This document shows positions 28,565 through 62,888 of a DNA stretch of 64,000 nucleotides, one piece after another. Within the stretch, counting starts at the first letter, position 1. Each line of letters starts with the position of its first letter. Origin of the DNA: an uncultured Thermoleophilia bacterium (GTDB lineage Bacteria; Actinomycetota; Thermoleophilia; UBA2241); the NCBI GenBank assembly GCA_963715985.1, contig CAVQSP010000009.1, positions 96,001-160,000 on the forward strand. The letters are read 5' to 3'. The notes under the pieces were generated by a model. That model saw only the letters and a list, made by a program, of their open reading frames with translations, searched no databases and was not told where the DNA came from. A program made the translations under genes and the position numbers.

Positions 28565-28661
28565 TGCTGCTCCTTGTCGAGCATCGAAGGGCTGACGGCG
28601 CGGGCTGCGGAGCGATGTCGCGACTCTCGCAGGCGCGTCAGGTCGCTCCCGGGCGCGCCGG

Positions 28662-30759
28662 CTATGACCGCACGTCTTGGTCACTCGGCCCGGGCAGCGG
28701 CAGCCCGAGCTCGCGCATGAGAAAGCCGAGCCACTCGGCCACCTGGTCCGGGTCGGTGCCGACGCTGAGGTGGCCGCCGTCGGGCCGGGCGCGCAGGAGG
28801 ACGGGGTGTGCGGAGCGATTGGCGGCAAGCAGGCGGGCCGCGAACTTGCGCGCGTGCCACGGGGCGCAGCGGACATCGTTCGCCCCGGTCCAGACCAGGG
28901 TGGGCGGGTACGACGCGTCTTGGGCATTCTGGTAGGGCGAGTACGCCGCCAGCACCGCTGCATCCGCAGCCGACGTCGGGTCGCCATACTCGACGACCAC
29001 CCCCCAGTACGTGTAGGGAGGGCGCTCGCAGCGGAGGAGGTCGGTCACCGGCACCTGGACACACACGGCACCCCAGAGCTCCGGGCGCTGGGTCAGCGCG
29101 ACGGCGGCCAGGATGCCGCCGCTCGACTCCCCCACGAAGCCGAGCCGGGCGGACGTCGTCACGCCCTCGGCGAGCAGCGCCTCGGCGATCACGTAGAGGT
29201 CGTCGAACGTGCCCTGCTTGCTCGCGAGCCGGCCTTCGAGCCATTGGCGCTCACCGTACTCGCCGCCGCCTCGCAGATGCGCGATCACGACGATCCCGCC
29301 GGCGAGCACAAAGGGGGCCAGCTTGCCCAGATACGCAGGCACGAAGGCGACGTTGGAGGCGCCATAGCCGAAGATGAGCGTGGGCCGTGGCAGCGAGCGC
29401 GCGGCGTCGCTGCTGCGAGATCAGCGTGTACGACGCTTCACGGCCGTTCGCGGCGACGGCCTTCCGGACCTCGCCGTACACACCGTCGAGGACGAACGCC
29501 GGCGGCTGGAGCAGCGTGAGCCGCCGCGACGGGACGTGGTAGAGGTAGGTGGCCGGGGAGCGTCCGGGAGAGGCGAACGTGAACGTGAACGACTCACCGC
29601 ACGCGACCACGCTCCCCCCCTCGATGGGGGGGAAGATCTTGTAGTTGCCGCTGAAGGCGTGCTCGGCCACGACGCCGCGCTCGGGAAGCGGCACATCATC
29701 GACGAACGTCCCATCCCGGTCGAGGATGCGGACCCGCGCGGCGGCGCCCTGAAGGCTGCACACGACGTAGTACCCGGCGACGTCGTCGACGCTCACCAGG
29801 ACCTCGTCGGACTCCGCCAACAGCTCGACCCAGGTGGACCTGTCGTGCGCGGACTCGAGCGGCAGGCGCACGAGACGTCCACGCGGGGCATCTTCGCTGA
29901 CCACCGCGACGTAGTCGTCGCCGTCGACGAAGCCATAGGCCCGCTTGTCCATCCGATCCTCGAGGACCTCGAACCACTCACCGTCCGGCAGGCGGCGCGC
30001 GAGCACGATGCGTCCCCCGCTGCGGCAGCTGCTGAGCGTGAGCCACCGCCCATCCGCCGAGACCTGGGGATACCCGCCGAGCGGCTCCGGATTCGAGGCC
30101 TGCGCGATCCCCAGCGCCGCGATCGACTCGCGCCGCGGTTCCCCATCGCCGACCGCCAGGAACAGCAGGTCGCGTGGCTGGTTCATCACGTAAGGACCCG
30201 CGGGGAAGAAGAAGCCGCTCGAATCCGGAAGCCAGGCCACCCGGGTGTTCCAGCACTCGGGGACCGCGACGGGAAGCAACTCCTCGCGCTCCAGGTCAAG
30301 CAGGCGCAGGACGCACTGTTCGTCGCCGCCCCAGGAGACACCGACTGCGGCGTAGCGGCCGTCGGGCGAGGGGAAGAACCAGTCCAGAGTCGCCGGCCGG
30401 CCGGGCTCGGAGAACGCGTCGACGGGCAGGACCACGCGCCACGGGCCCGCCGGTCCTGCGGCCGACTCCAGCCGCTCTCCATCGTCGCCGTACGCGAACC
30501 GCAGCCAGCGGTCGCCGCAGCCGTGGGGGGCGCTCACGTACGTCGCGCCCAGGTGGTCGCCCAGCATCTGTCTCAGAGCATCGAAGCCCTCCACGTCGCG
30601 CAGGCGGGCCTCCGCGACGGCGTTGTGCGCCCTTTGCCAGGCAAGCGACTCCGGGCTGTCGTCCTCCAGCCACACGTACGGGTCTTCGTAGTCGAGCCCT
30701 CCCGCGACGACACGGACAGGCCGCAGCTCCGCGAGCGGGGCCGCGAACTCGCCGTTCAC
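28662..30759 (-). CDS. Prolyl oligopeptidase family (S9A), paralog 2 (frameshift near 29400)
   Basis: EDPYVWLE, SPDGRY, LRGGGEYG, GESSGG, NDVRC, GGH. Confidence 0.85.
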
Positions 30760-31807
30760 CGCGAGCCCTTCGACAGCCCGGACGAGCGCAGATGACAGGC
30801 CACCAGGGTCGTGCCGCCTGAGGCTGCCGGCAGCAGCTGCGGCACCTCGACGCGGCAGCGCTCCTCGACGATCGGGCAGCGCGGATGGAAGCGGCAGCCG
30901 GGCGGCACGTGGGAGGCATCCGGCGGCTCACCCGGCAGGGTGCGCACGCGTTCCTCCTCGCGGTGCACGCGTGGTACCGCGTAGATCAGCGCCTGGGTGT
31001 AGGGGTGCTGCGGAGAGTCGATCACGGCGTGTGCGACGCCAAGCTCGACGAGGTTGCCGTGGTACATGACCGCGACCCGGTCGGCGACGTGAGCCGCCGT
31101 GGCGAGGTCGTGGGTGATCATGAGGATGCCGAGGCGCTCCTCCCTGCGCAGGCGGTCGAGCAGCTCGAGGATGCCGGCGCGCACGGAGACGTCGAGCATG
31201 GAGACGGGCTCGTCGGCAACGAGCAGGCTGAGGGCAGCAGGACGAGGCTGCCGGCGATGGCGACGCGCTGGCGCTGACCGCCGGAGAGCTGGTGCGGGTA
31301 GCGCTCGCTGAAGCTCGCGACCGGGGTGAGGCCGACCTTGGTGAGGGCGTCGGAGACGAGCTCCTCCTCGGCCGCCTTGTCGCGCGCGAGGCCGTGGATG
31401 CGCAGCGCCTCGGCGACCAGCTCGCGGGTGCGCAGGCGCGGGTCGAGGGCTGCGTAGGGGTCCTGGTGGATGAGCTGGGCGCGGCGGCGCAGCGGGCGCA
31501 GCTGGCGCCGCGAGAGGGCGGTCACGTCGCGGCCCTCGAGGAGGACCGTCCCGGCCGTCGGGTCGAGGAGGCGCAGGGCGGCGAGCGCCAGCGTCGTCTT
31601 GCCCGAGCCCGACTCGCCGACGAGGGCGAGGAGCTCGCCGGCGTCGAGGTGCAGGGAGACGCCGTCGACGGCGCGGGCGACGCTGCCGCCGCGCCCGCCG
31701 AGGCGGTCGCCGAGCGAGCGCTTGAGGGCGAAGTGCACGGCGAGGTCGCGGACCTCGAGAAGATGGGCGGCGGCGGAGCGGCCACGGGCTCTGAGGGGCG
31801 GCGGCGC

Positions 31808-31811
<4 letters not shown>
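30756..31811 (-). CDS. Oligopeptide ABC transporter ATPase (OppF-like, frameshifted)
   Basis: GESGSGKT, YPHQLSGGQRQR, ADEPVSMLD, HPYT, GCRFHPRCP. Confidence 0.88.
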
Positions 31812-32811
<1,000 letters not shown>

Positions 32812-32815
<4 letters not shown>

Positions 32816-33699
32816 GCCTCGTCCTCCGCCGTCGCCCGCCGCAGGCGGAACGAACGCGGCGAGACGTGGGCGTGCCCGAGGCGCGGGTTCATGGCCTCTT
32901 CGACGCCCTGGCCGATGAGGAAGGAGCCGAGCACGACGAGGGCGATGCAGACGCCAGGCGGCACGATGGCCCACCAGGCGCCGGAGGAGACCGCCGAGTG
33001 CAGGAAGGCGTTCTGGATGATCGTGCCCCAGGAGACGCGCGACGGGTCGCCGAGACCGATGAAGGCCAGCGCGGCCTCGAAGAAGACGGCGCTGGCCACC
33101 GTGAGCACGGTCTGCGCGACGAGCAGCGGCGCCACGTGCGGCAGGATGTGGCGGCGGATGATGTAGAGGTCACCGGCGCCCAGCGAGCGCGCTCGGGAGA
33201 CGAACCCGCGCTCCTTGAGCGTGTGCACCTGGGCGCGCACCACGTAGGTCACGCTCATCCAGCTGAGGAGCCCGATGACGAGGACGATGTGGTAGATGGT
33301 CTGCCCGAACAGCGCGGCCAGCACGATCATGAGGGGCAGGGCGGGGATCACGAGGAAGAAGTCGGTGACCCCGGTGACGGTGGTCTCGCCCCAGCTTCCC
33401 TTGTAGCCGGCGATGATGCCGAGGACGCCGCCGATGAGGACGGCCACGAAGGCCGCGGCGAAGCCCACGAGCATCGAGTTCTGGGCGCCGGCGATGACCA
33501 GGGACAGCATGTCGACGCCGGCGTCGTCACAGCCCAGCCAGTGGGCGGCCGAGGGAGGCGCAAAGGCGGCGCCGCTGGGGCGGTCGATCGGGTAGGGCTC
33601 GAGCAGCGGGGCGAAGACGGCGACGAAGGTGAAGAGGGCGACGATGACGACCCCGGCCAGTACCGTCTTGCGGGTGAGCACGCGGCGCAGGCTCTTCAT
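32812..33699 (-). CDS. Oligopeptide ABC transporter permease (OppC-like)
   Basis: HWLG.D..G.D, ARSLGA...IIRRHILP, SWG. Confidence 0.9.
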
Positions 33700-34661
33700 T
33701 CCGCGACCCTGGGGTCGAGCACGGCGTGCAGCACGTCGCCGAGGAAGTTGAAGCCCACCACCGAGACGGTGATGACGAGGAAGATGCCCTGCAGCATGGG
33801 GTAGTCGCGGGCGCCGACCGCCTGCACGGTGGCGAGCCCGACGCCGGGCCAGCTGAAGACGGCCTCGACGAGGAGGACGCCGCCGATCAGCCAGCCGAGG
33901 GTGAGCGTGGAGAGCGTGACGAGCGGCAGCATCGCCGAGCGGAAGGCCTCGCGCCAGACGATGCGCCGGTTCGCGTAGCCCTTGGCACGCGCCGTGAGCA
34001 CATGGTCCTCACCGAGCGCCTCCAGTTGGGATGAACGCACGACGAGGGCGAACGACCCGAACAACATCAGCGCCACGCAGGTGGCCGGGAGGAGCATGTG
34101 CTGGAGGCGGTCGGCGAGCGTGGTGACGAAGCCGGCATCGAACAGGTAGGGGTCGCTCATGCCGCTGGTCGGCAGCCAGTGAGCCAGCCAGACGAGGAGG
34201 AGGAGGCCCAGCCACTGTACCGGCAGGGCGTAGATGATCATGGCGGCGCCGGTGATGACGCGGTCGCGGGCGCCGCCCTGCCGGTAGGCGGCGGAGACCC
34301 CGATCCAGGTGCCGACGAGGATGGCGACCACCGTCCCCAGGAGGACCATGGGCACGGTGTTGCGGACCGACCGCCAGACCTCGTGGAGCACCGGCTGCTG
34401 CGTCTGGAAGCTGACGCCGAGGTTGCCGCGCGCGAGCTGCTTCAGGTAGAGCGCGTACTGCGTCGTCAGCGGCTTGTCGATGCCGAACTGCGCGCGCAGG
34501 GCTGCCTGTGCCTCCTTGGTGAAGTTGGGCACGCGGCTGAGGTTCGCGGTGGCGTCCCCGGGGAGCGCGCGGAACAGCACGAAGCTGAAGCTCACCGCGA
34601 TGAAGGCGATGACGAGCGCGCTCCCGGCGCGCCGCAGGATGAAGCGCTGGCGCTTGCTCAT
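33696..34661 (-). CDS. Oligopeptide ABC transporter permease (OppB-like)
   Basis: PGD, GNLGVSF, TARAKG, EAVFSWPGVG, RDYPMLQG. Confidence 0.9.
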   Translation of the reverse strand: MSKRQRFILRRAGSALVIAFIAVSFSFVLFRALPGDATANLSRVPNFTKEAQAALRAQFGIDKPLTTQYALYLKQLARGNLGVSFQTQQPVLHEVWRSVRNTVPMVLLGTVVAILVGTWIGVSAAYRQGGARDRVITGAAMIIYALPVQWLGLLLLVWLAHWLPTSGMSDPYLFDAGFVTTLADRLQHMLLPATCVALMLFGSFALVVRSSQLEALGEDHVLTARAKGYANRRIVWREAFRSAMLPLVTLSTLTLGWLIGGVLLVEAVFSWPGVGLATVQAVGARDYPMLQGIFLVITVSVVGFNFLGDVLHAVLDPRVAE

Positions 34662-34724
34662 GGTCTCAGATCGAGGCGCGGGCGGCTGCGCCGCCCGCGC
34701 CTCGAGATCCGTCCGCTCAGCCCG

Positions 34725-36430
34725 TCACTGCACTGCCAGGGAGTTGAACTGCGTCTTGTTCAGGTAGTGGTAGTAGCCGAACGGCGAGTCGCCCTGCGGC
34801 ACGCCCTGCCACTTCTTGTTCCAGGCCGTGACCACCTGCGTGTAGACGAGCGAGTGGTTGACCACCTGGTCCAGCATCATCGTCGACATCTGCTCGATGA
34901 GCGCCTTGCGCTTGTCCGCGTTCATCTCGCTGGTCTGCTGGGTCCAGAGCTTGTCGTACTCCGGGTTCGAGTAGCCCGTCGGGTTGTAGACGCCGAGCAT
35001 CTGGCTGGTCGAGATCATCAGCGACCAGTCGGGATCGGGCGTGAGCCCCCACTGCGTCAGCAGCATGTCGTAGTCGGTGTAGGGCTTGGCGCCGGCGAAC
35101 GCCACCGCGAGTGAGTTGTCGACCGCCTTCTTCTCCAGGCCGATGCCGATCTCCGCGAAGTTCTGCTTGAGGAGGTCCGCCGTGCGGCCGTCGGTCGCGA
35201 TGCTCTGCGTGCCGATCAGCAGCGTGTACTGCATCTTCACGCCGTCGGCGACGCGGATGCCGTCGCCGCCCTTGGCGTAACCCAGATCGTCCAGCAGCTG
35301 GTTGGCCTTGGCCACGTCGCGCTGCGTCACCGGCACCGGCGCCGAGAGGAACTGTGGCACGTACTGGTTGAGCAGCCACGACCCGCCGGGGTCGGCGATA
35401 GCCGCCGTACACGGAGTCGATGACGGCGGTACGGTCGATGGCGAGGTCGAGCGCCTGCCGCACCTCTACCTTGTTGAGCTCGGGGTGCTTGGTGTTGTTC
35501 TTGGAGTAGTTCACCGCGATGGACAAGGGGATGCCTCCGCCGAAGCCCTCGATCTGGAGGTTCGCGTCGCTCTTGATCGTGGGCGCCGACGCCGGCGGCA
35601 GGAAGTCGACGCAGTCGACCTGGTCGGTCTTGAGCGCCTGCACGGCGGCGTCGCCGTTGGTGAACACCTGGTAGCCGTACCCCGTGATCAGCGGCTTCGG
35701 GCCGTAGAAGGTGTCGACGCGCTTGAAGATCGTCGTGCCCTTGAGGTCGAGCTTCTGGATCTCGAACGGGCCGGAGCAGACCACGGGCCCGTCGGCCGGG
35801 TCCATGCTCACCGTCTTGAGCTTGGCGCCGTCGCCCTTCGCGTACTGGGACCAGACGTGCTCGGGCAGGATCGGCAGCTGGAAGAGGTTGGCGATCAGGG
35901 CCGCCGAGGGCTGGGCGAGCGTCACGTCGAGCGTCGTGTCGTCGACGGCCGTCGCGCTCTTGATGCCGGGGACGAACGGGCTCAGCACGGCGGCCGCCCC
36001 GCCTGCGAACTTCACCACCGTGTTGATGGTGAAGGCCGCGTCCTTGGCCGTGATCGGCTGGCCGTCGGTCCAGACCGCGCCGGAGCGCAGCTTGAAGGTC
36101 CAGGTGAGGCCGTCCGCGCTCGCCGTCCACGACTCGGCGAAGTCGGGCTGCGCCTGCGAGATCACTCGAGTACTGGACGAGGTTGGGGTACATCAGCATC
36201 CAGGCCGCATAGTCCATGGCGTACATGCCGACGAAAGGATTGAGCGAGTCGTAGCCGTAGCCGGCGGTGCCGAGCCTGTAGATCGGCTGGTCGCCGCTGG
36301 GGCTGGCCGAGCTGCTGCTACCACCGCCTCCCCCGGAGCTGCTGCCGCACCCGGCCAGCAAGATGATGGCGAAGCCGGCAAGCGCCGCGATGAACGCTCC
36401 CCGCCGTGCGAACTCTCGAGTCCGGTCCAT
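34725..36430 (-). CDS. Oligopeptide ABC substrate-binding lipoprotein (OppA-like, frameshifts near 36165 and 35395)
   Basis: Lipobox LLAGC, SLNPF, ADGLTWTFKLR..W.DG.PITAKD, SGPF, YSNPEYD. Confidence 0.88.
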
Positions 36431-36476
36431 AGTCCGATCCTCCCCCTCGTGTCACCACTTCGCGACTGGTGCTCAA

Positions 36477-36535
36477 TTACGTATTGTAATTACGTAGAGT
36501 GTGATATTTTTGCGCCATGACCGAGCCAATGTCAA
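36477..36535. promoter_or_regulatory. Bidirectional promoter/operator module, copy 2
   Basis: TTACGTA-N6-TTACGTA, TGaTATTTT ending 7 nt before the ATG at 36517, minus-strand TTGACA at 36530-36535. Confidence 0.65.
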
Positions 36536-37290
36536 CAGAGCGAGCCGGGCGGCGCAGACGCACCCGCGGTGAGACCCGAGAACTCCTTCTGGCGGCGGCG
36601 ACGCGCCTGGTGAGCAGCAGGATCGCCGGCAACGGCGCGCCGTCGGTCAATCCCCTCGCCGACGTCCTGCTCACGGACGTGCTCGACGAGGCGAACCGGG
36701 TCTTGCGCGCCGCCGACCCTGGGGCGCGCAAGATGACGACCGGGGCGGCCTACAACATCTGGCCCAACCAGACGGATTTTCAGCTGGACCTGCTCGCGCG
36801 GGTGCTGGACGCGGCGGCGACCCCGGGGCTGGAACGGGTGAGGGCGGCGACGCTGAACGGCCTTGCCCGCTCGGTGCCGTGGCAGACGGTGCTCGCCGAC
36901 ACCATGGAAGTCGACTTCCTGGAGTCGTACGCAGAGCCATCAATGTTCCTCATGATCGGGGTCGCCGCGCTGGCCGCACCGGCCGACGTCGCGGCCGGCG
37001 AGCAGGAGGCGAACGAGCGCTACGTGGCGGAGACCGGCGAGCTTCTCGCGGCCATCGTCCGCTACGCCGGCCGGCGGCTGCGCCCCGACCGCACCATGGA
37101 GGACCTGGTCTGGGCGATCGAGGCCCTGGAGACCGGCTACCTCCTGCGCATGCGCGTCGCTGACGACGTCCCGCTGCGCCGCGACGCCGCGGGGGCCAGC
37201 GCCCTGGCGACGGCGGCCACCGGCATCGTCGAGGCGTTCACGGAGCCGCTGGAGGCGTCTCCGGCCGCGGAGGCGAGCGCGCGGGACTGA
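36517..37290 (+). CDS. Atypical TetR-like transcriptional regulator, possibly leaderless
   Basis: TRELLLAAA...TTGAAYNIWP HTH-like segment; divergent from the opp operon. Confidence 0.6.
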   Translation: MTEPMSTERAGRRRRTRGETRELLLAAATRLVSSRIAGNGAPSVNPLADVLLTDVLDEANRVLRAADPGARKMTTGAAYNIWPNQTDFQLDLLARVLDAAATPGLERVRAATLNGLARSVPWQTVLADTMEVDFLESYAEPSMFLMIGVAALAAPADVAAGEQEANERYVAETGELLAAIVRYAGRRLRPDRTMEDLVWAIEALETGYLLRMRVADDVPLRRDAAGASALATAATGIVEAFTEPLEASPAAEASARD

Positions 37291-37349
37291 GTCCGACCAC
37301 TGCGTGACGCTCGAGAAGGCAGAAGCCCGGCTGCAGGTCCCGCCCGGCG

Positions 37350-38495
37350 TCAGCCGTCCGTTCTGTCTCCCGTGAGCCAGGGCCGCGCGGCGAGCAGGCG
37401 CGCGATCGCGGCCTCGTCGTACTCGACCCCGAGGCCGGGACCGTCCGGCACACGCATCATGAGCACGCCCTCCTCGCGGCGCTGGACGAAGCCAGCGGCG
37501 ATGCTGTCGATGTAGCCCATCGCCGCCTGGTCCGCCGTGTCGCTGTAGCGGGCGTTGGCAAGCGCGCCGTGCAGGGCGATCATCGCCGCGCAGGCGCCGG
37601 CCACCTCGCCCATCGCGCCCACGTGCAGCGTCATGCCGGCGGCCTCGGCCACGGCGTTGACCTTGAGCGCGTTGAGGATGCCGCCGCACTTCATGAGCTT
37701 CACGTTGATGACGTCGCAAGCGCCGGCGCGCGCGGCCGCGAGCGCCTCGCGCGGGCCCCGCACGCTCTCGTCGAGCGCGATGGGCACGTCCACGCGCTCG
37801 CGTACGAAGCGGCAGGCCTCGAGGTCGTCCATCCGCACAGGCTCCTCGACGAACTCGACGTCGTACGGTTCGAGCAGCCGGATGGCCGCGATCGCCCGGC
37901 GCGCCGTGCGCCAGCCGGTGTTGGCGTCGCACTTGATCTGCGCGCCGGACCCGACCGCCTCGCGCACGGCGGCGACGCGCTCCGCGTCACTGCACGGGTC
38001 GTCGCCGACCTTGACCTTGAAGACGGTCACGCCCTCGGCGGCGCGGGCCCGTGCCGCGGCCGCCAGCTCCTCCGGCGGGGCGTAGCCGAACGCGTGGATG
38101 AGCGGGACCGAGCCGCCGCGCACGCCGCCGACGAGCTCGACGAGCGGCCGCCCGAGCGCCTTGCCCTGCAGGTCCCACAGGGCGAGCTCGAGGCCCGCTT
38201 TGGCGGCCTGGTTGCCGACGACCTGCTCGAAGCCGGCCGTGATGCGTTCCAGGTCGAACGGGTCACGGCCCACGACCATGGGCGCCAGGTGCTCGCAGAT
38301 CACGTCCTCCACCGTCCACAGCGTCTCGCCGGTGAACTCGTAGGCCGGCATGGCCTCGCCGTAGCCCACAAGGCCATCGTCTGTCTCCACGCGCACGATG
38401 TCGACCGGGTTGGCGGCCATCGCGGAGGTGGCGATGACGTAGGGATGCGCCATGCGCATCCACAGAGGAGTGACCGAGACTGCGGTGACGCGCAT
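37350..38495 (-). CDS. Enolase-superfamily epimerase/racemase (dipeptide epimerase/MLE subgroup)
   Basis: GYGEA, ALWDL.GK, FKVKVG (KxK), DAN, EEP, DES, NVKLMKCGG. Confidence 0.85.
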   Translation of the reverse strand: MRVTAVSVTPLWMRMAHPYVIATSAMAANPVDIVRVETDDGLVGYGEAMPAYEFTGETLWTVEDVICEHLAPMVVGRDPFDLERITAGFEQVVGNQAAKAGLELALWDLQGKALGRPLVELVGGVRGGSVPLIHAFGYAPPEELAAAARARAAEGVTVFKVKVGDDPCSDAERVAAVREAVGSGAQIKCDANTGWRTARRAIAAIRLLEPYDVEFVEEPVRMDDLEACRFVRERVDVPIALDESVRGPREALAAARAGACDVINVKLMKCGGILNALKVNAVAEAAGMTLHVGAMGEVAGACAAMIALHGALANARYSDTADQAAMGYIDSIAAGFVQRREEGVLMMRVPDGPGLGVEYDEAAIARLLAARPWLTGDRTDG

Positions 38496-38504
38496 GGTCC
38501 CTCC

Positions 38505-39914
38505 TCAGCGGCGCCGCGGCCGGGGGCCGCTCGGCATCGAGAAGTCGAGCCCGCGCCGCAGCAGCCGCGACACAGGGTCCGGCCGGCGCCCCTCGTCCTC
38601 CGCGATCTCACAGCGCTCGACGGCGCTGCGCACGGCGCGCGCTCCGACGGAGCGGAAGGGCTCCGGAGGCAGATAGGTCGGCGGCTCCGAGACGAGCGGG
38701 GACAGCGCGTAGTCGTCGCGCAGACCCAGCGCGACCGAAGCCAGCGTGCGGCCGATCAGGTTGGACGGCGCGACACCGTTGCCCGAGTAGCCGACGCCGT
38801 AGTGGACGTTCGCGTGCGGACCGACCGTGCCCACCCAGGGCAGGCCGTGCTGGGTACGGTCCACCGGGCCGCCCCAGCGCCACTCCACGGGCAGGTCGCG
38901 GGTCGCCGGAAGCAAAGCGTGCATGTCGGCGACGATCTCGCCGATCTCACGCGGATCGTGGAAGTGCGCGGGGATGACGCGGCCGCCGTACCCGAGGCGG
39001 CCGCCGCCGCGCCCGAACGCCAGGCGGTCGTCGCCGGTCCGCTGGGCGTAGTGGACGGCGGTGCGGTTGTCGGAGAACGGGCGGCCCCTGACCCAGCCGA
39101 GCCGGTCGAGGTGCTCGCGCGATGCGGCCGTGGCCACCATGTGCGACGGGATGATGAAGATCGTGCGGCGCAGCTCGGGGACCAGTGCCAGCCACGATCC
39201 CGCGGCGAGCACGACCTTGTCGGCCACCACGGCGCCCGACGGCGTCTCGACCACCGCCGGCAACGTGCGCTCCAGCTCCAGCATCGGCGTCGCCTCGTAG
39301 ACGCGCACGCCGGCTTCGATCGCGAGGCGGCGGAGGCCCTGGACGAGCAGCGCCGGCTGGACGCTGCCGGCATGCAGGATCAGCTCTCCCGCCTCGGCCA
39401 GAGGCGAGCCGCACAGGGCGCGCGCTTCGTCCCCGTCGAGGACCCGCAGCAGGTCGTCGCGCCCCAGGTCGCGAGCCGCCGCGGCGGTCGCCTGCAGGGA
39501 CTCCGCCTGGGCCGGCGACGCCGCCACGACGAGGCCCCCTTCCATGCCGAAGTCGCAGTCGATGTCGCCGTCCCGCACGGTGTCGCGGATGTCTGAGACG
39601 CTGCGCCGCGAAGCTTCGAGCAGCCACGCGGCGGCCCCTGCGCCGAAGCGGGCGACCAGCTTGGGTAGCGACTTGTCCCAGCCGTTCACCCAGCCGCCGT
39701 TGCGCCCGCTGGCGCCGGCGCCGCAGTACTCGCGCTCGACGAGCACAATGTCCGTGTCCGGCTCGAGACGCTTGATGGAGAGCGCGGCCCACAGACCGGT
39801 GAAGCCCCCGCCGACGATGCAGGCGTCAGCGCGTTCGGTGGTGGTGAGCGGCACGAGGTCGCGCGGCTGCCAGCGCGGATCGCCGCCCTGCCAGAGGACG
39901 CCTGCGCGGGTCAT
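38505..39914 (-). CDS. FAD-dependent oxidoreductase (DAO/PuuB-like)
   Basis: IVGGGFTGLW.A, GASGRNGG, VQPA.L..GL, WGGP, GYSGNGV. Confidence 0.85.
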   Translation of the reverse strand: MTRAGVLWQGGDPRWQPRDLVPLTTTERADACIVGGGFTGLWAALSIKRLEPDTDIVLVEREYCGAGASGRNGGWVNGWDKSLPKLVARFGAGAAAWLLEASRRSVSDIRDTVRDGDIDCDFGMEGGLVVAASPAQAESLQATAAAARDLGRDDLLRVLDGDEARALCGSPLAEAGELILHAGSVQPALLVQGLRRLAIEAGVRVYEATPMLELERTLPAVVETPSGAVVADKVVLAAGSWLALVPELRRTIFIIPSHMVATAASREHLDRLGWVRGRPFSDNRTAVHYAQRTGDDRLAFGRGGGRLGYGGRVIPAHFHDPREIGEIVADMHALLPATRDLPVEWRWGGPVDRTQHGLPWVGTVGPHANVHYGVGYSGNGVAPSNLIGRTLASVALGLRDDYALSPLVSEPPTYLPPEPFRSVGARAVRSAVERCEIAEDEGRRPDPVSRLLRRGLDFSMPSGPRPRRR

Positions 39915-41224
39915 GACGCCACCCCGCACCAGCGCATCGCCATCACTGCCACCGCCGCCGTGAAGTCCAGCAGGCTCTGCACGCTCACGTGCTCGTTGAC
40001 GGCGTGAGCCGAGTCGATGCCGTCCGGACCGAAGCTGAAGGTGGGCGTACCGTTCGCGGTGAACGTGGCGGCGTCGTGCCAGCTGTCCAAGCCGGCGGGC
40101 CGGCCGGCACGGCCCACGAGCGCCGCGCACTCGAGCGCCGTGACGACCAGCGGGTGGTCGGCCGGCATCTCGGCCGGCACCACATCGTCGGCCCAGCGGA
40201 AGCGCAAGGGGTGCTCCGCGAACCACGGGTCCGCGGCCACGGCGGCGTTGAGGCGGTCGACGACTTCGGCCTCGACCGCCTTGCCCGTACCCTCCGCGTC
40301 CACGTGCGCGGGCAGGTAGGTGATGTCGCAGGTCACGTCGCAGCTGGCCGGGATGGTGACCATCCAGGTCCCGCCCTGGACGATGGTCGGCACGATGTCG
40401 CCGGGGGAGAGCAGCGGGTGCCGTTGGTCGGGGCGCTGCCTCCACTCCTCGCGCAGCGCCTTGATGCCCTCCAACAGCGGCATCAGCTTCTCGACGGCGT
40501 TGACGGCGCCGCCGTCGCGCCAGTCCGGCTGCGGCATCTCGGCGTGCCCGGCGCGGCCCTCCACGGTGATCGTCGGCGTCACGGTGCCGCGACAGCTCAC
40601 CCAGGCGTCGAAGCCGGTGGGCTCGGCGGCGATCCCCGCATCGGCCCGCACGCCGTGCTCGACCGCGGCCCGGCCGCCGGCGCCGGACGACTCCTCGTCG
40701 GTCACCGTGCACAGCACCACGTCGCCGGCCGGCCGCACGCCGAGCCGGTACAGCGTCTCCAGCGCCACCACCAGGCAGGCGACGCCGCCCTTCATGTCGC
40801 TGGCGCCGCGCCCGTAGAGCAGCCCCTCGCGCTCCTCCAGCCGGAAGGGGTCGCTGAGCCACTGCTCGCGCGGAGCCACGTCCACGGCGTCGATGTGGCC
40901 GTTGAGCAGCAGGCTGCGGCCGCCGCCGGCGCCGGGTATCGTGGCGGCCAGCTGGGGCCGGCCGGCGAAGTCGAGGCCGGCCGGCACGAAGCGGCTGCCG
41001 GCGCCGGTCGGCGCCGGCTCCCACAGGTCGATGCGCGCCCCGAGCGCGGCGAGGCGCGCCGCCAGGATCCGCTGCAGCTTGTCCTCGTCGCGCGCGGGGT
41101 CGCCGGGCAGGCGCGCGGTGGTGTCGCACGCCACGAGCTCGGCGAGCAGCGCGACGATCTCGTCGGGGGCGCCTCGCACAGCGCCGACGACGCTCTCCTC
41201 GACGGTGAAGCGCGGTCCACTCAC
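39911..41224 (-). CDS. ArgE/DapE family M20 deacylase
   Basis: LNGHID, GRGASDMKGG, DEE, AEPT, GHA, FGP...AH. Confidence 0.85.
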   Translation of the reverse strand: MSGPRFTVEESVVGAVRGAPDEIVALLAELVACDTTARLPGDPARDEDKLQRILAARLAALGARIDLWEPAPTGAGSRFVPAGLDFAGRPQLAATIPGAGGGRSLLLNGHIDAVDVAPREQWLSDPFRLEEREGLLYGRGASDMKGGVACLVVALETLYRLGVRPAGDVVLCTVTDEESSGAGGRAAVEHGVRADAGIAAEPTGFDAWVSCRGTVTPTITVEGRAGHAEMPQPDWRDGGAVNAVEKLMPLLEGIKALREEWRQRPDQRHPLLSPGDIVPTIVQGGTWMVTIPASCDVTCDITYLPAHVDAEGTGKAVEAEVVDRLNAAVAADPWFAEHPLRFRWADDVVPAEMPADHPLVVTALECAALVGRAGRPAGLDSWHDAATFTANGTPTFSFGPDGIDSAHAVNEHVSVQSLLDFTAAVAVMAMRWCGVAS

Positions 41225-41312
41225 CAGGCATCCTCCCAGACGACGGCGACAACACGGCCTGGCCATTGTACGCTCGTGCCGCACCGCTTCTACGCTCACA
41301 TGGAGGGCCCCC

Positions 41313-41711
41313 ATGACGCCAGGACGCTCGACCAAGATCCGCGTGATCAAGCCGCAGGACGTCGTCTGGGAGGAGGCCCTGCGCTCGTCCCAGGAGGTGG
41401 AGGAGCCCGGCAAGGAGTTCACGGCCGCGCAGTCGGTGGACCAGAAGTTCAGCTTCGGCCTTTGGCAGCGCGACGAGCAGAGCCGCCACTTCGAGCGCCC
41501 TTACCATGAGATCGCCTACATCATCGAGGGCCGGGTGGAGGTCACCGACGACGACGGCGAGGTCCTCATCGCCGGCCCCGGCGACATCCTCGTCACTCCA
41601 CAGGGGAGCAAGGGCTACTGGAAGAACCTCAGCCCGGTGAAGAAGGTGTGGGGCATCTACGAAGAGGTAGGGGCCGACCTGGACCCGTATATCGGCCCGG
41701 GCGCGTTCTGA
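41313..41711 (+). CDS. Cupin domain protein (DUF861/EutQ-like)
   Basis: GLW, EIAYIIEGRV, GPGD...P.G..G.W. GGAGG RBS. Confidence 0.8.
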   Translation: MTPGRSTKIRVIKPQDVVWEEALRSSQEVEEPGKEFTAAQSVDQKFSFGLWQRDEQSRHFERPYHEIAYIIEGRVEVTDDDGEVLIAGPGDILVTPQGSKGYWKNLSPVKKVWGIYEEVGADLDPYIGPGAF

Positions 41712-56835: not shown

Positions 56836-58275
56836 TCAGTCGGCCGGTACGATCGCGTTCAGGCGCTCGGTCAGCTCCTCCGGAGCGCCGGCGCCTCGTG
56901 CGTCGCGAGCAGCTCGAGCGCCTTGCGGCGGGCCTTCTCCGTGGCGTCCAGCCCGCCGCCGTCTATCCAGCGGTCGTAGCTGGCGCGGTTGAGCAGCTGG
57001 GCGCGCCACTGGCTGCTGCGCAGGTGGCGCCTGGTGTGCCGCTGGCCGAGGTAGTCGCCGCCGGGGCCGACGGCCTTGAGCACGTCCACGGCCAGCGTCT
57101 CGTCCGAGACCTCGATCTCGGCGAGCAGGCGCCGGTCGCGGGCGATGAACTCGGCCGCCAGCACGACCTCGGCGAGCGAATCCGGAGAGGCCGAAGTCCA
57201 TGTAGCCGACGTCGTGGTTGAGGTTGGCGCCCAGCTGCATGGAGAGCTTGATGAGCTCGTCGGCCTCCATGCCGGCCTGGGCGTCCACGACCTGCGCGTC
57301 GGTGTGGCCGCTGAACCCCCAGTTGGGGATGTCCAGCCACTTGGCCATCTCCACCTCGCAGGCATAGGCGCGCGTGAACTCGGGCGAGTTGTACGACGAC
57401 TGCGACGTCGCCATGTCCAGCGTGTTGGGGCCCTGCCCGATGACGAACGGGCGCTCCGGGGACCCGGAGCTGGTGCATGACGAGGCCGAACAGCGCCTCG
57501 GCCACGCCGAGCGTGATCTGGCCGGCGGTGGTGATCGGGGCGGTGCCGCCGGCGACCGGCGACGGGCAGTAGGTGGACGGGACGCCGTGGTCGGCGCAGA
57601 ACAGCAGCTTGTCCACCGTCTCGAACGGGTGCTTGAGCGGCGTGACGGGCTGGTTGTACATGACGAAGTAGGGCTTCTCGCGCAGCGCCTCGGCGCCGCC
57701 GCGGACCTCGCAGGCCATCCGCCACATGGGCTCCACGGTCTCCACGCCGCCGGCCGTCATCACGAGCGGCTTGGTGGTGGCCGGGATCATGGCGCGGAAC
57801 TGCTTGCGGGTAGGCCTCCCGCGCGTCCATGCCGTCGGGGTAGGCGCCCGACATGACGAAGTCGATGTCGGGCAGGGCGTCGCAGAGACGCGCCGCCTCG
57901 GTGACGTCTTCGAGCTTGCCGAGGCGGCGTTCGCCGGTCTCCAGGTCGTGCAGGTGCATCACGTCGGAGCCGTTGCCGAAGTACGAGCCTCGGCCGCCGA
58001 GGTCCATGGCCGGCTCGCCGTCGCGGTCGTAGACGACGAAGCTCGACGGCACCGACTCGCGCGCCTGCTCGACAAGGGCGGCGCGGGACGTGGACGAGGC
58101 CGTCGCCGTCCTTCGTGCAGCCGCCCTCGAGCATGACCTGCTCGCCCTCCTCGTGGAGGACGACCATGCCGATGTCGGCGAGGATGCCGAGGGCCGTCTC
58201 GTAGATGCGCCGCTTCTGCTCTTCGCTGAGGAAGCTGACGCGGCCGGCGCCGATCTCCTTGCTGCTGTCTGACAT
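56836..58275 (-). CDS. Non-pyrrolysine MttB-superfamily protein (frameshifted)
   Basis: [45 protein letters not shown] (His at the Pyl site), [13 protein letters not shown]. Confidence 0.85.
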
Positions 58276-58360: not shown

Positions 58361-59836
58361 CTAGTGCACGTCCAATTCGCGTTCTGCGGCATCGATAATC
58401 GACTTAAGTTCTGCCGCGACCGCGTCCGGGCAGCGGCTCCGGCCGGTGCGTCTCGAGGATGCGCCGGGCCTCGGCGAGGGCGCGGTCGTAGAGCGTCGTC
58501 GACCCGTCGGCGGCCCACTCCTCGCGGACCCGGCGGTCGATGAGACCTGCTCCGCGACTGGTCGCGCATGCCTTTGTACGTGTCGTCGTGGGCGAGGAAG
58601 TCGTTGAACGGCCCGATCTCGGCGATGACGTCCACGGCGAGCGTCTCGTCGCTCACCGGGATGCCCGGCACGCAGTACTTGACCATGCGCGCGAACTCCG
58701 CGTCCATGACCAGCTGCGCGTAGTCGATGGTGACGCCCGATTCCAGCATCCCCAGCCCGTAGATCAGGTTGGCCCCTGCCAACGCCGGCAGCAGGCTGGT
58801 GATCGTCTTCTCGTGTCCGGATTGGGCGTCCGACACTTTGGAGTCGCCCTACGCACCGGCGACCCAGCTGGGCAGCAGGTAGTAGCGCGCCAGGCAGGCC
58901 ACGCCGGCGCCGATCATGCCGCACTCGGGGCTGCCCACCGAGGCGCTGGCGAAGCGCAGGTCCAGAGCCGTGGTGGACGAGCCGTAGATGACCGGGCGTG
59001 CCGCGCTCCGTGAGCTGCGCCAGCGTGATGCCGCTGAGCACCTCGGCGTTGTGGCCGACCAGCGTGCCGGCCAGGCTCACCGGCGACGACCCGCCGGCCA
59101 TGGCCATGGAGAGCACGTTGACGGGGATGCCGGCGCGGGCGCCCTCGATGATGATGCGGCAGACGTCGGCGACCAGCTTGAGCGGGCTCACCGGGCAGGT
59201 GAGGAACGAGAGGATGGGGCGGCGGCGGAGCTCGTCGTGCCCGCCGGCGATGGCCGCCGCCATGTCGATCATCTTGCGCGCGCAGAAGCCCGTGAGCGGG
59301 CCGATGGTGGCGTGCTTCGTGGTGTTGCTGAAGATGGCCTCGGCGTTGTGCAGCGCCGCCGTGTCCTGCGGCGACGTCGTGGGCGCCCAGCGGCCGCTCC
59401 ACCACGTCGATCTCGGGCAGCGCGTCGATGATCCTGCGTGCAGTCGGCGACGTCCTGCTTGCGCGACTCGTGCAGCTCGCCGGTGTACGGGTCGACGACC
59501 TGGATGCCCTCGCCGAAGTTGGTGAAGCCGACGCGGCCGTCCTCAAGGACGACGTCCCGGGCCGGGTCGCGCCCGCACATCACGACCTTGGGCGGCGCCG
59601 AGCGGATCGCGTCCTCCACGAGGTGCGCCGGGATGCGCACCACGCCGCGTCTCGCGATCGACCTCGGCGCCGGCCGCCGGCGAAGATCTCCTGCGCCTCC
59701 GCGTCCTCCACGAAGACACCGGTGCGCGCCAGTACCTCCAGCGTCGCGAGATGGATCTCGTGAGCTCGTCGTCGGTGAACACCTCGAGCCTGAAGCCGCC
59801 GCTCTTGCGCGCTCCTGCGCGCGGGTTACGGATCAT
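58361..59836 (-). CDS. mttB: Trimethylamine:corrinoid methyltransferase, pyrrolysine-containing (in-frame TAG at 58849-58851; several frameshifts)
   Basis: [93 protein letters not shown], matching the Pyl context of methanogen MttB. Confidence 0.92.
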
Positions 59837-59839
59837 CGG

Positions 59840-61236
59840 TCAGCCTCCCGCCGTGCGTTCCTTGAACTTCTCGACGCTGTTGATGGGCACGTCCAGCACG
59901 CGCGCGATGTTGAACTTGGCCTCGATCTGGTTGGCCTGCCAGGGCTGGCTGATGGCGTAGCTGTGGACGCGCCCGAACCCGTGCTCGTTGCGCACGTCGG
60001 TCATCACGACCGGGTCCGAGAGGTCGAACGGCGTGACGCCGAGCTTGTCGGCCACGTACTGCTTGGCTTCCGTGAGGCGCATGCCCCGAGTCATCTGCAT
60101 ACGGGCAACCAGGTCTCCGCCTGCCCGAATACCGCCGATGCTCGCCGCCTGCGCGTGCGCGTTGTGCATGCCGTGCGGGTCGCCCGAGCCGACCTACAAG
60201 CCGTCCACGTGCAGCAGCTCGACGAACGACTTGGCCGCCCGGCAGACGGCGTCCGAGGGCAGGTGCACGAACATCGGCACGCCGCCGACGCCCATGCCGG
60301 CGTTGGGGTGCACGGGGATCTCGGCGACCTCCATGCAGGGCTTGATGAGGGCGATGGCGCGGGCCATGTTCCAGGCCAGCGACTTGCCGGTGTTGACGTT
60401 GACGACGGGCCCGAACATGGTGGCGCCGGCCTTCTGCGCGAGCAGCAGCTGGTCCTTGGGCCACAGCCCGGCGAGGCGCACGCCCTCCCACTCGAGCTGG
60501 CCGTGCATGCCGAGCACGAACTCGCCGGCCATGCCCAGCTGCACGCCCATGTCGGGGTACTTCTCGCGGATGATCTTCGTGGCGCGCAGCGCGGCCAGGA
60601 ACTCGGGGTCGCCGGAGGCGCCGGTGGTGTCCCAGTCGATGGCGTCGGCGCCGGCCTCCCACTGCGAGTCGGCGAGGTTGACCATGTCGACGACGGCCAT
60701 CTCGACGGCCTCTTCGGCGGCCGCCCGCGCCTCGGCGATCTTGCCCAGCGGCAAGCAGCTCGTTCCAGTTGTCGCAGGGCCCGTCGGGCTTGGAGTAGAG
60801 GCCCAGGTTGGGCATCACGCCGTACTGCAGCGGGGCGATGGTGCAGAGCTGCGCGTCGTGCATGTACTGGGCCTCGTAGGCGAGGATGGTGCGCACCACC
60901 TTGAGCGAGTAGTCGCCGACGCAGAGCTCGAGCAGGTCGGCGCCCATCCACTGCTCGTAGGACTGCAGGTCCTGGATGCGCGTGGCGTGCGTCTTCATGC
61001 CCCGTGCCGTCGCAGCTGAGGACGATCTCCTCGCCGACGTCGACGCCGATGAAGCGCAGCGGCGAGGCGTAGATGTCGAGCAGGTGGTCGATCTCGTCGT
61101 CGGTGAGCGGCGCCACCTTGGCGCGCTTCACGGCCGCCGCCACGCCCGCCTCGAGATCGGCGCGGATCTCGCTGCGCGTCAGCCGCGCAAAGGTGCCGTC
61201 GCCCATGCGGGTCGGCACCCTGGCCTCGTTCGTCAC
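59840..61236 (-). CDS. mtbB: Dimethylamine:corrinoid methyltransferase, pyrrolysine-containing (in-frame TAG at 60194-60196; frameshifts near 61000 and 60755)
   Basis: RMGDG, MPNLGLY..PDGP, DTTGASGD, GMAGEFVLGMHG, GMGVGGVPM, VDGL-TAG-VGSGDP.GM..AH...GIRAGGDLVARMQ...EAK.YVA.KLGV, AK.NI...L...INS. Confidence 0.93.
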
Positions 61237-61430: not shown

Positions 61431-62888
61431 ATGAGAGCGCACACGACCTGGCTGAGCGAGGCCGAGAAGAGCAGGATCGTCGACGCAGGCGATGGAGCCT
61501 GCTCGGGAACGTGGGCATGCGCTTCGCCGGCTCGAGCGTGCTGCCCCTGCTGGCGGAGCGCGGGGCGGACGTGGACGAGGCCACCGGGCTCGTCCGTCTT
61601 CCCCGCGAGCTCGTGGAGTGGGCGGTCGGCCAGTGCCCCCGCCGGATCGTCATGGCCGGCCTCGACGGAGGCGGACGACGTGCGTGCTGGACGAGGGCGA
61701 GCCCTTCCACTTCGCGCCCAGCGGCTGCGTCGCGAAGACGCTCGACTTCCGCAGCGGGCGAGCGCCGCGCCAGCACGCTGCAGGACGTGCGCGAGTGCAC
61801 GGCCCTCAACGACGAGCTGCCCGAGCTCGACATCATGTGGACGCAGGTGAGCGCATCCGACGTGCCGCTGGAGGCACGCGAGCTCACCGAGTACTTCACG
61901 CTGCTCACCGAGACGCGCAAGCACGTGACCTTCGTCGACTGCCCTACGGAGGTCGACGCGGTCGTGCGGCTCTGCGAGGCCCTGGCGGGCGACCTGGAGC
62001 GCTTCCGCGCCCGCCCGCGCATCTCCACCGTGGTCACCGCGGCGTCGCCGCTGCAGGTGGACGGCGGCATCCTCGACGTGCACGTGGCGCTGGCGCGGCA
62101 CGGCGTGCCCGTCAAGATCTACTCGATGGCCATCGCCGGGGCGACGGCGCCGGTGACGCTGGCCGGCACGGTGGTGCAGGGTCTCGCCGAGTTCCTCGGC
62201 GTCGCCACGGCGCTGCAGGTGGCGGCGCCCGGGCGCGCGCCTCGTCTTCTGCTTCGGCTCGGGCGTGCTCGACATGCGCCAGACGACGTTCGCGCTGGGC
62301 TGCGTGGAGGCGCGCTGATGGCGGCCATGGCCACCGAGGTCGGCCACCACGTCGGCGTGCCGACCCTCAGCCCCGGCTTCTCGACCGACGCCCGGCACGT
62401 CGCCCTGCAGGACGGCTACGAGAAGGCGATGAAGGCGGCGACAGTGTGCGCCGCCAACCCGGACGTCGTCACCGGCTGGGGGCTCGTGGACTCGCACAAC
62501 ACGATGTCGCTGCCGCAGTCGGTCATCGACAACGAGATGGCCGGCATGCTGCAGGCGGCTGAACCGGCCGGTCGAGGTCTCCGACGCCACGCTCGCCGCC
62601 GAGGCCTTCGACGCCGTCGGGCCGGGCGGCGGGTTCCTCGGCCGCAAGGAGACGGCCAAGCGCATCCGCGCCGGCGAGCACTACCTGCCGACCCTCTCGA
62701 GCCGGCTCTCCTACGAGAAGTGGGTGGAGCAGGGCGCGACGGAGTACGACGAGGCCTGCGCGCGCGTGGAGGCGCTGCTGGCCGCGCACGCCTCAAGGAG
62801 CCGTACATCGACGGCGCGCTGCTGGACGAGATCGCGGCCATCTGCCGCGTGGACGACGACGCCGTGCGCCGAGCACGGCGCGAAGTGA
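61431..62888 (+). CDS. Non-pyrrolysine MttB-superfamily protein (frameshifted)
   Basis: HFAPSGC, TAASPL, AIAGATAPVTLAGT, LDMR, SPGFSTDAR (Ser at the Pyl site), GYEKA, VIDNE, VGPGGGFL. Confidence 0.82.

Follow-up and report, generated by a model that had tools for sequence, protein, structure and literature searches.

A probable pyrrolysine-type mttB gene in an uncultured Thermoleophilia bacterium and a conserved hairpin downstream of its UAG codon

The window analysed here is a stretch of 64,000 nucleotides (nt), of GC content 70.8%, lying at positions 96001-160000 of contig C9 (CAVQSP010000009.1) in the genome of an uncultured Thermoleophilia bacterium (GCA_963715985.1: 4.35 Mb in 22 contigs, 88.8% complete, 7.29% contamination). 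Its minus strand carries a row of methyltransferase genes, mtbB, mttB and an mttB-like gene. The second of the row, mttB, a trimethylamine:corrinoid methyltransferase gene, is our subject: like the mtbB before it, and unlike the mttB-like gene after it, it holds an amber codon at the place where such enzymes carry pyrrolysine (Pyl). We give a probability of roughly 85% to the reading that this is a genuine Pyl-type mttB of a Thermoleophilia-like actinobacterium, that its UAG is decoded as Pyl and that the frameshifts of the assembled copy are most likely consensus errors. A conserved hairpin follows the amber codon. The coordinates of all features are collected in Table 1.

On the minus strand the letters around the codon are TGG GTC GCC GGT GCG TAG GGC GAC TCC AAA, with the TAG at 58851..58849. 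The gene reads from an ATG at 59836 to a second TAG, its stop, at 58363..58361, and gives a conceptual product of about 489 amino acids interrupted by eight breaks; its frame pieces match positions 77-131, 177-291 and 292-435 of the PF06253 profile, and the product is 89-90% identical in amino acids to intact orthologues. Aligned with MttB of Methanosarcina barkeri, the TAG falls on the X of 7xcl_A, residue 334, so that the amber which the first-pass annotation had located at the Pyl site of mttB is indeed there. The same annotation held that this amber was in frame and that the frame continued past it: both are true of the local piece 58992..58552, which translates through and beyond the codon, but the gene as a whole requires eight changes of frame, which had been overlooked. 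A 147-residue piece around the TAG, aligned with known structures, scored 157.5 bits (E 2e-45) with 7xcm_A and 154.9 bits with 7xcl_A, versus 88.5-88.6 bits with the non-Pyl enzymes 9YCE and 2QNE and 64.9 bits with 4YYC.

A scan of species-representative genomes returned 330 relatives, of which the best 80 were used for the locus counts; these are mostly metagenome-assembled genomes (MAGs) of Thermoleophilia, Actinomycetes or Actinomycetota, then of Desulfobacterota, including the Olavius-associated Delta 1. All 80 loci have TAG at the homologous codon, which agrees with the earlier opinion that chance is unlikely. Upstream of it the frame is open over at least 326 codons in 74 of the 80 (L011 and L077 end at the end of their record, L016, L032 and L042 are interrupted, and L081 has 310 codons), and downstream it runs for 160-176 codons to a stop in 79. 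This conservation carries the identity of the codon as Pyl. Support from reads is weak: among the differences listed between the window and contigs from public sequencing runs none falls on 58849-58851, and those contigs come from relatives. Could the TAG rather be a working stop, leaving a truncated protein of about 334 residues with or without a C-terminal fragment, or a miscalled sense codon? TAG is certainly a common stop in this genome (19.6% of 2220), release factor 1 (RF1) is present and the assembly is error-prone in this patch. But the errors of the patch are indels and not substitutions, the codon is TAG in 80 loci out of 80 from two phyla with about 161 conserved codons then following in frame, the catalytic Tyr364 lies downstream of it and the genome has a complete Pyl system, all of which makes such a stop or base error very improbable.

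The genome contains 89 matches to PF06253. We aligned 42 long MttB rows, i.e. 41 long matches and the window gene. TAG occurs in ten of them (nine paralogues and the window gene), always in one column and within the context AG-x-O-x-D-x-K...DAQ-x-GHEKT; the other 32 rows have at this column A, C, G, H, I, L, M, N, P, S, T, V, W or Y. The context AG-O-xDxK...GHEKT, which the first reading ascribed to true trimethylamine methyltransferases, is common to all TAG copies. In a quick maximum-likelihood tree of 47 rows (the 42 and five outside loci), the 15 TAG rows all fall in one clade of 16, with an approximate likelihood-ratio support (SH-aLRT) of 99, separate from 31 non-TAG paralogues; the sister of the window gene is the Thermoleophilia locus L018. 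An enzyme of the non-Pyl, quaternary-amine branch (MtgB, MtcB or MtpB-like) with a coincidental TAG might be imagined in a genome where 32 of 42 long MttB rows are non-Pyl and two such genes flank mttB, but the position inside the Pyl clade contradicts it, as do the far higher score against Pyl-MttB than against MtgB and the shared context; we regard it as the least credible of the explanations considered. The sixteenth row of the Pyl clade (C3:63073-64479) carries a Leu codon (CTC) where the others have the Pyl TAG, and its catalytic Tyr364 is replaced by Ala. A single orthologue of it, 94% identical, was found in 150 sampled genomes of the class (G134:C4:793920-795323, locus L099), and the Leu variant looks like a recent Pyl-free derivative, presumably changed in function.

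The structural work on the M. barkeri enzyme describes Gly110-Thr111, Met249, Pyl334, Tyr364 and Gly372 as active-site residues and states that Gly110 and Tyr364 are 100% conserved among Pyl-MttB (PMC9842639). At these positions the window gene reads G, E, M, UAG, Y and G: Gly110 (the G of FGEG in the alignment), Met249, Tyr364 (the Y of NLIYG) and Gly372 are kept.

The means of decoding the amber are encoded in the same genome. The genes pylB, pylC and pylD, a tRNA-Pyl and the split synthetase genes pylSn and pylSc lie together on contig C13, between 551949 and 560053. At the gathering threshold Rfam gave no match on this cluster (L001, C13:547000-563000), so the tRNA-Pyl called by ARAGORN is missed by the Rfam tRNA model. 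The genome has not abandoned TAG as a stop: among 2220 confidently coding long open reading frames, TAG ends 435, TGA 1721 and TAA 64, RF1 is found with 479.7 bits, and the next in-frame stop after the TAG stops is at a median of 61 codons. For mttB, whose final stop is also TAG, the next in-frame stop is a TGA at 57961, 134 codons on; 19 of the 80 related loci likewise end on TAG. Within one mRNA of mttB, as the sequence is read here, UAG serves both as sense and as stop. A tRNA-Sec (tca) gene lies at C13:139538-139635, so that selenocysteine, the 21st amino acid, may be in use in this genome beside Pyl, the 22nd.

The breaks of the reading frame deserve a closer consideration. Compared with six orthologues, mttB has seven one-base insertions and one one-base deletion, no indel of a length multiple of three and no other indel inside the gene. 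Contigs related to the window, taken from four public runs, are free of the indels at five of the eight sites (among the rows listed). No run contains more than 0.26 of the sampled words (the RNA runs 0.10-0.16), and the contigs are those of relatives and not of the source strain: of the 81 to 283 per run, 6 to 57 reach a similarity of 99% or more, the majority staying under 95%. For a residue test we took 33 of the 37 closest loci, setting aside the truncated or interrupted L011, L016, L032 and L036, then removed L007, L010, L027 and L033, where the 334-codon window overran the starts. Among the 29 remaining orthologues 317 of 489 columns are invariant; the window gene differs at four of them (I/L, Y/F, S/A and A/S), conservatively in each case. 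Apart from the shifts, the protein is under purifying selection. Its terminal branch in the quick tree is 0.047, versus 0.063 for its sister.

The damage extends beyond mttB. Four adjacent genes, on both strands, are shifted as well according to tblastn, and the switches of the GC-rich third codon position from one phase to another (GC3-phase switches) reach 7, 7, 5 and 5 per 2 kb between 56 and 64 kb of the window, with a genome median of 2; 49 of the 2164 2-kb bins of the genome have at least seven. We scanned four frameshift-dense patches elsewhere, one of which contains a Polysacc_synt_2 gene (L085:3054-3822) split across two overlapping frames; they also gave several partial matches to unrelated families, and many fragments without a Pfam match, so that as a control they inform only in part. 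The pylB gene is split too, at C13:552649-552686. Any annotation of this genome will undercount its intact genes.

Two explanations compete for these breaks. In the first, mttB is a true pseudogene, a redundant paralogue decaying together with its neighbours, whose TAG is the relic of a functional Pyl codon. Eight frameshifts in 1.5 kb, the shifts in three neighbouring methyltransferase genes, the many fragmented MttB-family matches elsewhere in the genome and the redundancy brought by some ten Pyl-mttB and 11 Pyl-mtbB loci would all fit. Neutral decay that collected eight indels should, on the other hand, have struck many invariant sites, and the changes are limited to four out of 317, each conservative; the Pyl TAG is the only in-frame stop, larger deletions are absent and the branch is no longer than that of the sister. 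Gene decay usually proceeds with a bias toward deletions. Here seven of the eight indels are insertions, and frameshift-dense patches also strike pylB and unrelated genes. Decay of mttB is on this account unlikely, though clearly less so than either a working stop or a coincidental TAG. In the second explanation, which we hold to be very probable, the eight frameshifts are local consensus errors in a poor assembly stretch, approximately 56-64 kb of the window; the mttB of the organism itself is probably intact despite the assembled breaks.

Some observations weigh against a functional Pyl-type mttB and have to be put in the balance. Apart from its UAG, the gene has no uninterrupted frame, and the assembled copy is not translatable as it stands. 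The fragmented genes seem to include more than their share of the MttB family, as one would expect too if redundant paralogues were decaying. Where the M. barkeri enzyme has Thr111, this gene and all 29 orthologues compared have Glu; the same substitution (FGEG) is found in most TAG paralogues of the genome. TAG is not depleted, no back-up stop lies close behind and mttB itself ends on TAG, so nothing in the stop usage accounts for a confinement of read-through to the right codons. Finally the window contains no corrinoid-protein gene (PF02607), 21 being found elsewhere in the genome, the nearest at C9:169968; such a small gene could be hidden by the frameshifts of the patch.

From the codon, homology, clade, machinery and active-site residues of mttB we infer Pyl insertion, as well as the substrate and the methyl acceptor of the enzyme, in the following way. 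PylBCD would make the Pyl, the split PylSn/PylSc synthetase would load it onto the tRNA-Pyl(CUA) that the genome itself encodes, and this tRNA would decode the UAG in competition with RF1, TAG being still an ordinary stop in the genome. By homology with M. barkeri MttB, trimethylamine would be bound and activated by the Pyl imine, and the Co(I) of a corrinoid protein, whose gene lies elsewhere in the genome, would take up the methyl group, which in a non-methanogen would presumably go on to tetrahydrofolate (THF); candidates for a pterin-binding methyltransferase are present in the genome.

A second finding concerns the RNA downstream of the amber codon. RNAalifold, applied to 27 sequences of the 110 nt that follow the UAG, singles out the codons +23 to +28, GCG-TTG-GCA-GGN-GCC-AAC (A-L-A-G-A-N), which are invariant at synonymous sites except for the third base of GGN and fold as GUUGGC / AGGN / GCCAAC. 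In the window gene 58783..58778 pairs with 58773..58768 around the loop AGGG (58777..58774), and lower pairs extend the stem. In 84 sequences (74 loci and ten paralogues) this stretch is the least codon-variable of 25 scorable six-codon windows, with 0.40 bits versus a column mean of 1.08; the codons are GCG in 82, TTG in 81, GCA in 83, GCC in 81 and AAC in 80 sequences, while the Gly of the loop varies (GGG 42, GGT 25, GGC 12, GGA 5). Of all columns of the gene, +27, +25, +24 and +23 are the most fixed in codon, and among 224 conserved columns only +25 shows one and the same codon wherever its residue is present. Setting the Leu variant aside (83 sequences), TTG at +24 reaches 98% versus 0-11% at 24 other conserved Leu columns, and GCA at +25 100% versus 0-19% at 28 other Ala columns. 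Such rare codons fix the hairpin in each of the UAG-bearing mttB genes examined from Thermoleophilia and Desulfobacterota.

Pairing itself is kept in 98.1% of the cells over 90 sequences (46 distinct), versus 18-56% with slid partners, a control expected to be lower as the structure was derived from the same sequences. Three pairs change on both sides, G-C to A-U, U-A to C-G and C-G to G-C, a result reached by none of 500 shuffles; the last of these arises via Ala-to-Gly and Ala-to-Leu changes in the copy at C14:696701. In a further set (loci L098-L127), 27 hairpin regions of UAG copies have six of six pairs in 22 cases and five of six in the other five; one of the 27 is a paralogue of this genome already counted, L118 was left unscored as the pattern required Tyr, and the set includes copies from family f4 of the class and two copies of L122 that still pair despite changed amino acids. 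A search of the genome with a degenerate motif found ten copies, which in the ten Pyl-mttB genes all lie 68-71 nt downstream of the TAG. The folding energies are less telling: for the 110 nt after the UAG z is -1.79, with ten of 200 shuffles folding as well, and for the hairpin alone (-12.2 kcal/mol) z is -1.6, with 14 of 200. This energy evidence is weak; the case for a structure rests on the comparison between sequences, which indicates that the conserved structure is selected for as RNA, over and above the encoded protein.

The Leu variant and its orthologue L099 bear on the relation between hairpin and amber: both, having also lost Tyr364, keep the peptide ALAGAN and write it with ordinary high-GC codons (GCG-CTG-GCA/GCG-GGC-GCG-AAC), which leaves two mismatches in the stem, so that the hairpin has decayed in the only subclade where Leu replaced Pyl. 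This is one evolutionary event, and the link it draws to the UAG is therefore suggestive only. Somewhat speculatively, and against the odds in our own estimate, the hairpin might be a bacterial cis-signal which promotes or regulates Pyl insertion, or which couples the decoding of UAG to the fate of the mRNA, so that UAG-to-Pyl decoding in these bacteria would not be a bare competition with RF1. The hairpin lies more than 60 nt from the UAG, too far to touch the ribosome decoding it; possible mechanisms are a recoding enhancer acting via a factor or via ribosome queueing, a coupling of transcription and translation, and an effect on mRNA stability. A pairing of the hairpin with tRNA-Pyl was considered and rejected, the longest complementary word being 6 nt, i.e. 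at the chance level.

Rfam has families for the regions following such codons, the pyrrolysine insertion sequences (PYLIS), and PYLIS_3 and PYLIS_2 start exactly at the TAGs of mttB and mtbB respectively, both above their gathering scores. The score of PYLIS_3 rests mostly on sequence, because several of its consensus pairs are non-canonical here; its consensus structure has no hairpin at nt 69-84, where the consensus letters would pair at three of six positions. From that consensus line we would expect mttB of archaea and Firmicutes to be without the hairpin; a tblastn of the Pyl-region piece for Pyl-mttB DNA of other lineages gave no match among plasmids. In its account of the mttB region the source paper of PYLIS_3 (PMC3639795) reports no sign of a common structure, and for bacterial Pyl genes a cis-element was sought and none found, with no common RNA structure, according to the corresponding part of PMC1976440. 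As far as the accessible text of the literature on PYLIS, mttB and pyrrolysine in bacteria goes, we found no description of the hairpin.

A comparable element belongs to the mtbB genes. In PYLIS_2 the 3' hairpin, which spans nt 73-92 downstream of the UAG and has a loop AGAC or AGAT (AGAY), is paired at 89% in 51 distinct sequences versus 23-55% when slid. A pair formed by two third-codon positions covaries (CG 16, AU 16, GC 6, UA 4, UG 3, AG 6), and all 51 sequences write Gly +26 as GGA. Taken with that of mttB, this means that in two unrelated Pyl families a short hairpin, capped by a tetraloop that begins with AG, follows the UAG at a comparable distance. The mtmB locus L128 gave no Rfam match at the gathering score, thus no match of the PYLIS_1 type.

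Table 1. Position of the features discussed. Coordinates are those of the window, or of contig C13 where indicated; strands as recorded.
Feature	Position	Strand	Evidence
mttB, Pyl-type trimethylamine:corrinoid methyltransferase gene	58361..59836	-	PF06253 matches on frame pieces; frame map
UAG codon, predicted to be read as Pyl, equivalent to Pyl334 of M. barkeri MttB	58849..58851	-	alignment to 7xcl_A; TAG conservation
Conserved hairpin, nt 65-87 after the U of UAG, core nt 67-85	58765..58787	-	sequence comparison
Rfam RF02510 PYLIS_3 ('pyrrolysine insertion sequence mttB'), from the UAG	58752..58851	-	73.4 bits, gathering 38, E 2.2e-14, model 1-100 of 100
One-base deletion, position +/- 2 nt	59762	-	six orthologues; related contigs add a base behind 59760
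One-base insertion	59679	-	orthologues; related contigs omit a base at 59677
One-base insertion	59649	-	orthologues; related contigs omit a base at 59648
One-base insertion	59436	-	orthologues; related contigs omit a base at 59435-59437
One-base insertion	59373	-	orthologues only
One-base insertion	58996	-	orthologues; related contigs omit a base at 58994/58996
One-base insertion	58551	-	orthologues only
One-base insertion	58427	-	orthologues only
mtbB, Pyl-type dimethylamine methyltransferase gene, directly upstream of mttB, three frames	59840..61220	-	PF09505 pieces; tblastn frames -2, -3, -1
UAG (Pyl) codon of mtbB	60194..60196	-	TAG between Pfam profile positions 353 and 355
Rfam RF02509 PYLIS_2 (mtbB), from the TAG	60097..60196	-	60.1 bits, gathering 36
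Downstream non-Pyl MttB-family gene, His at the Pyl column, frameshifted	56871..58275	-	tblastn frames -3, -1, -2, -3
Divergent non-Pyl MttB-family gene beyond mtbB, at least one frameshift	61493..62753	+	tblastn frames +1, +2; PF06253
pylB, two overlapping frames	C13:551949-552972		303.8 + 125.8 bits
pylC	C13:553014-554180		317.9 bits
pylD	C13:554252-555034		199 bits
tRNA-Pyl(cta), directly after pylD	C13:555126-555198		ARAGORN
pylSn	C13:556301-556558		124.6 bits
pylSc	C13:559328-560053	minus	316.5 bits, cut-off 178

In the neighbouring mtbB, the second amber at a known Pyl position that the first-pass annotation had mentioned is real: the TAG at 60196..60194 divides the PF09505 match into pieces covering profile positions 156-353 and 355-462. 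The genome as a whole has about ten Pyl-mttB loci, 11 Pyl-mtbB loci (from 15 PF09505 matches, counted as about 11 loci with one TAG each) and two mtmB genes with TAG, besides five mtmB-family loci without it. Within the class, matches at E <= 1e-60 in the 150 sampled genomes occur in 24 of 25 genomes of its own family, three of 25 in family f4 and one of 24 in family f6, with none in the other eight families sampled.

Farther along the window, two intact non-Pyl MttB-family genes (25626-29044, minus strand) stand beside a prolyl-oligopeptidase-like gene, an Opp-type ABC transporter, an enolase-superfamily gene and an M20 peptidase (29254-41500); the genes from 25626 to 41500 may be a cluster that breaks down an N-methylated peptide or amino-acid derivative. 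Between 45399 and 51732 the plus strand has a row of Fe-S and flavin oxidoreductase genes with several ferredoxin-domain proteins, including an HdrA-like protein of 677 residues with Pyr_redox_2 and 4Fe-4S domains. Elsewhere in the genome, the segments C3:7432-9108 and C9:168510-170186, each with an MttB-family and a corrinoid-protein gene, have identical or nearly identical scores (206.9/205.8 and 73.4/73.4 bits), which would suit a duplication of the segment or else redundancy among the contigs of a bin contaminated to 7.29%.

The closest structural model is MttB of M. barkeri (PDB 7XCL, 7XCM, 7XCN; PMC9842639), with which the window gene shares PF06253, the UAG at Pyl334 and Gly110, Met249, Tyr364 and Gly372. 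It differs by its Glu at Thr111, by its host, which is bacterial and not a methanogen, by the splitting of the synthetase into PylSn and PylSc and presumably by a methyl acceptor which would be THF rather than coenzyme M. The glycine betaine methyltransferase MtgB (2QNE, 9YCE; 88.5-88.6 bits) has in common with it the TIM-barrel family and corrinoid-dependent methyl transfer, but lacks the UAG and uses a quaternary amine, and the window gene stands outside its clade. Among bacteria, the Olavius algarvensis delta-1 symbiont was described with several Pyl mttB/mtbB, pylT, pylSn, pylSc and pylBCD (Zhang and Gladyshev 2007, PMC1976440); an Olavius-associated Delta 1 locus in our set (L052) is 73% identical and has the same TAG and the same hairpin, in another phylum, Desulfobacterota.

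Nearer to the present organism, Actinobacteriota MAGs of peatland (a thawing mire) express Pyl-encoding mttB and mtbB, and the active methylotrophs named there include the genus Bog-752 (Ellenbogen et al. 2023, PMC10805028), and PylRS has been found in two Actinobacteria (PMC9630628). Locus L009 (isolate bog_752) is 91% identical to the window gene over the 147-residue piece, with the same TAG, whereas the window represents a different species-level genome and its copy is frameshifted in the assembly. The relevant part of PMC10805028 inferred Pyl from gene truncation only and discusses no downstream RNA structure. As judged from these reports, Pyl-type mttB and mtbB have already been published for Actinobacteriota of peat and soil, and the window gene is a further member of this group.

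For annotation such genes matter: gene callers split them at the TAG, and frameshifts here split them further. For ecology, the Pyl gene set marks this genome as that of a methylamine specialist, competing with methylotrophic methanogens for substrate. Since 2007 it has been asked how bacteria in which TAG is still a frequent stop restrict Pyl to the right UAGs. The hairpin, being defined by codons, makes this question testable with synonymous mutants; a cis-signal at this place, if true, would go against the view now held, according to which there is no cis element, and the hairpin is in this respect the only part of the present findings that could change a textbook statement.

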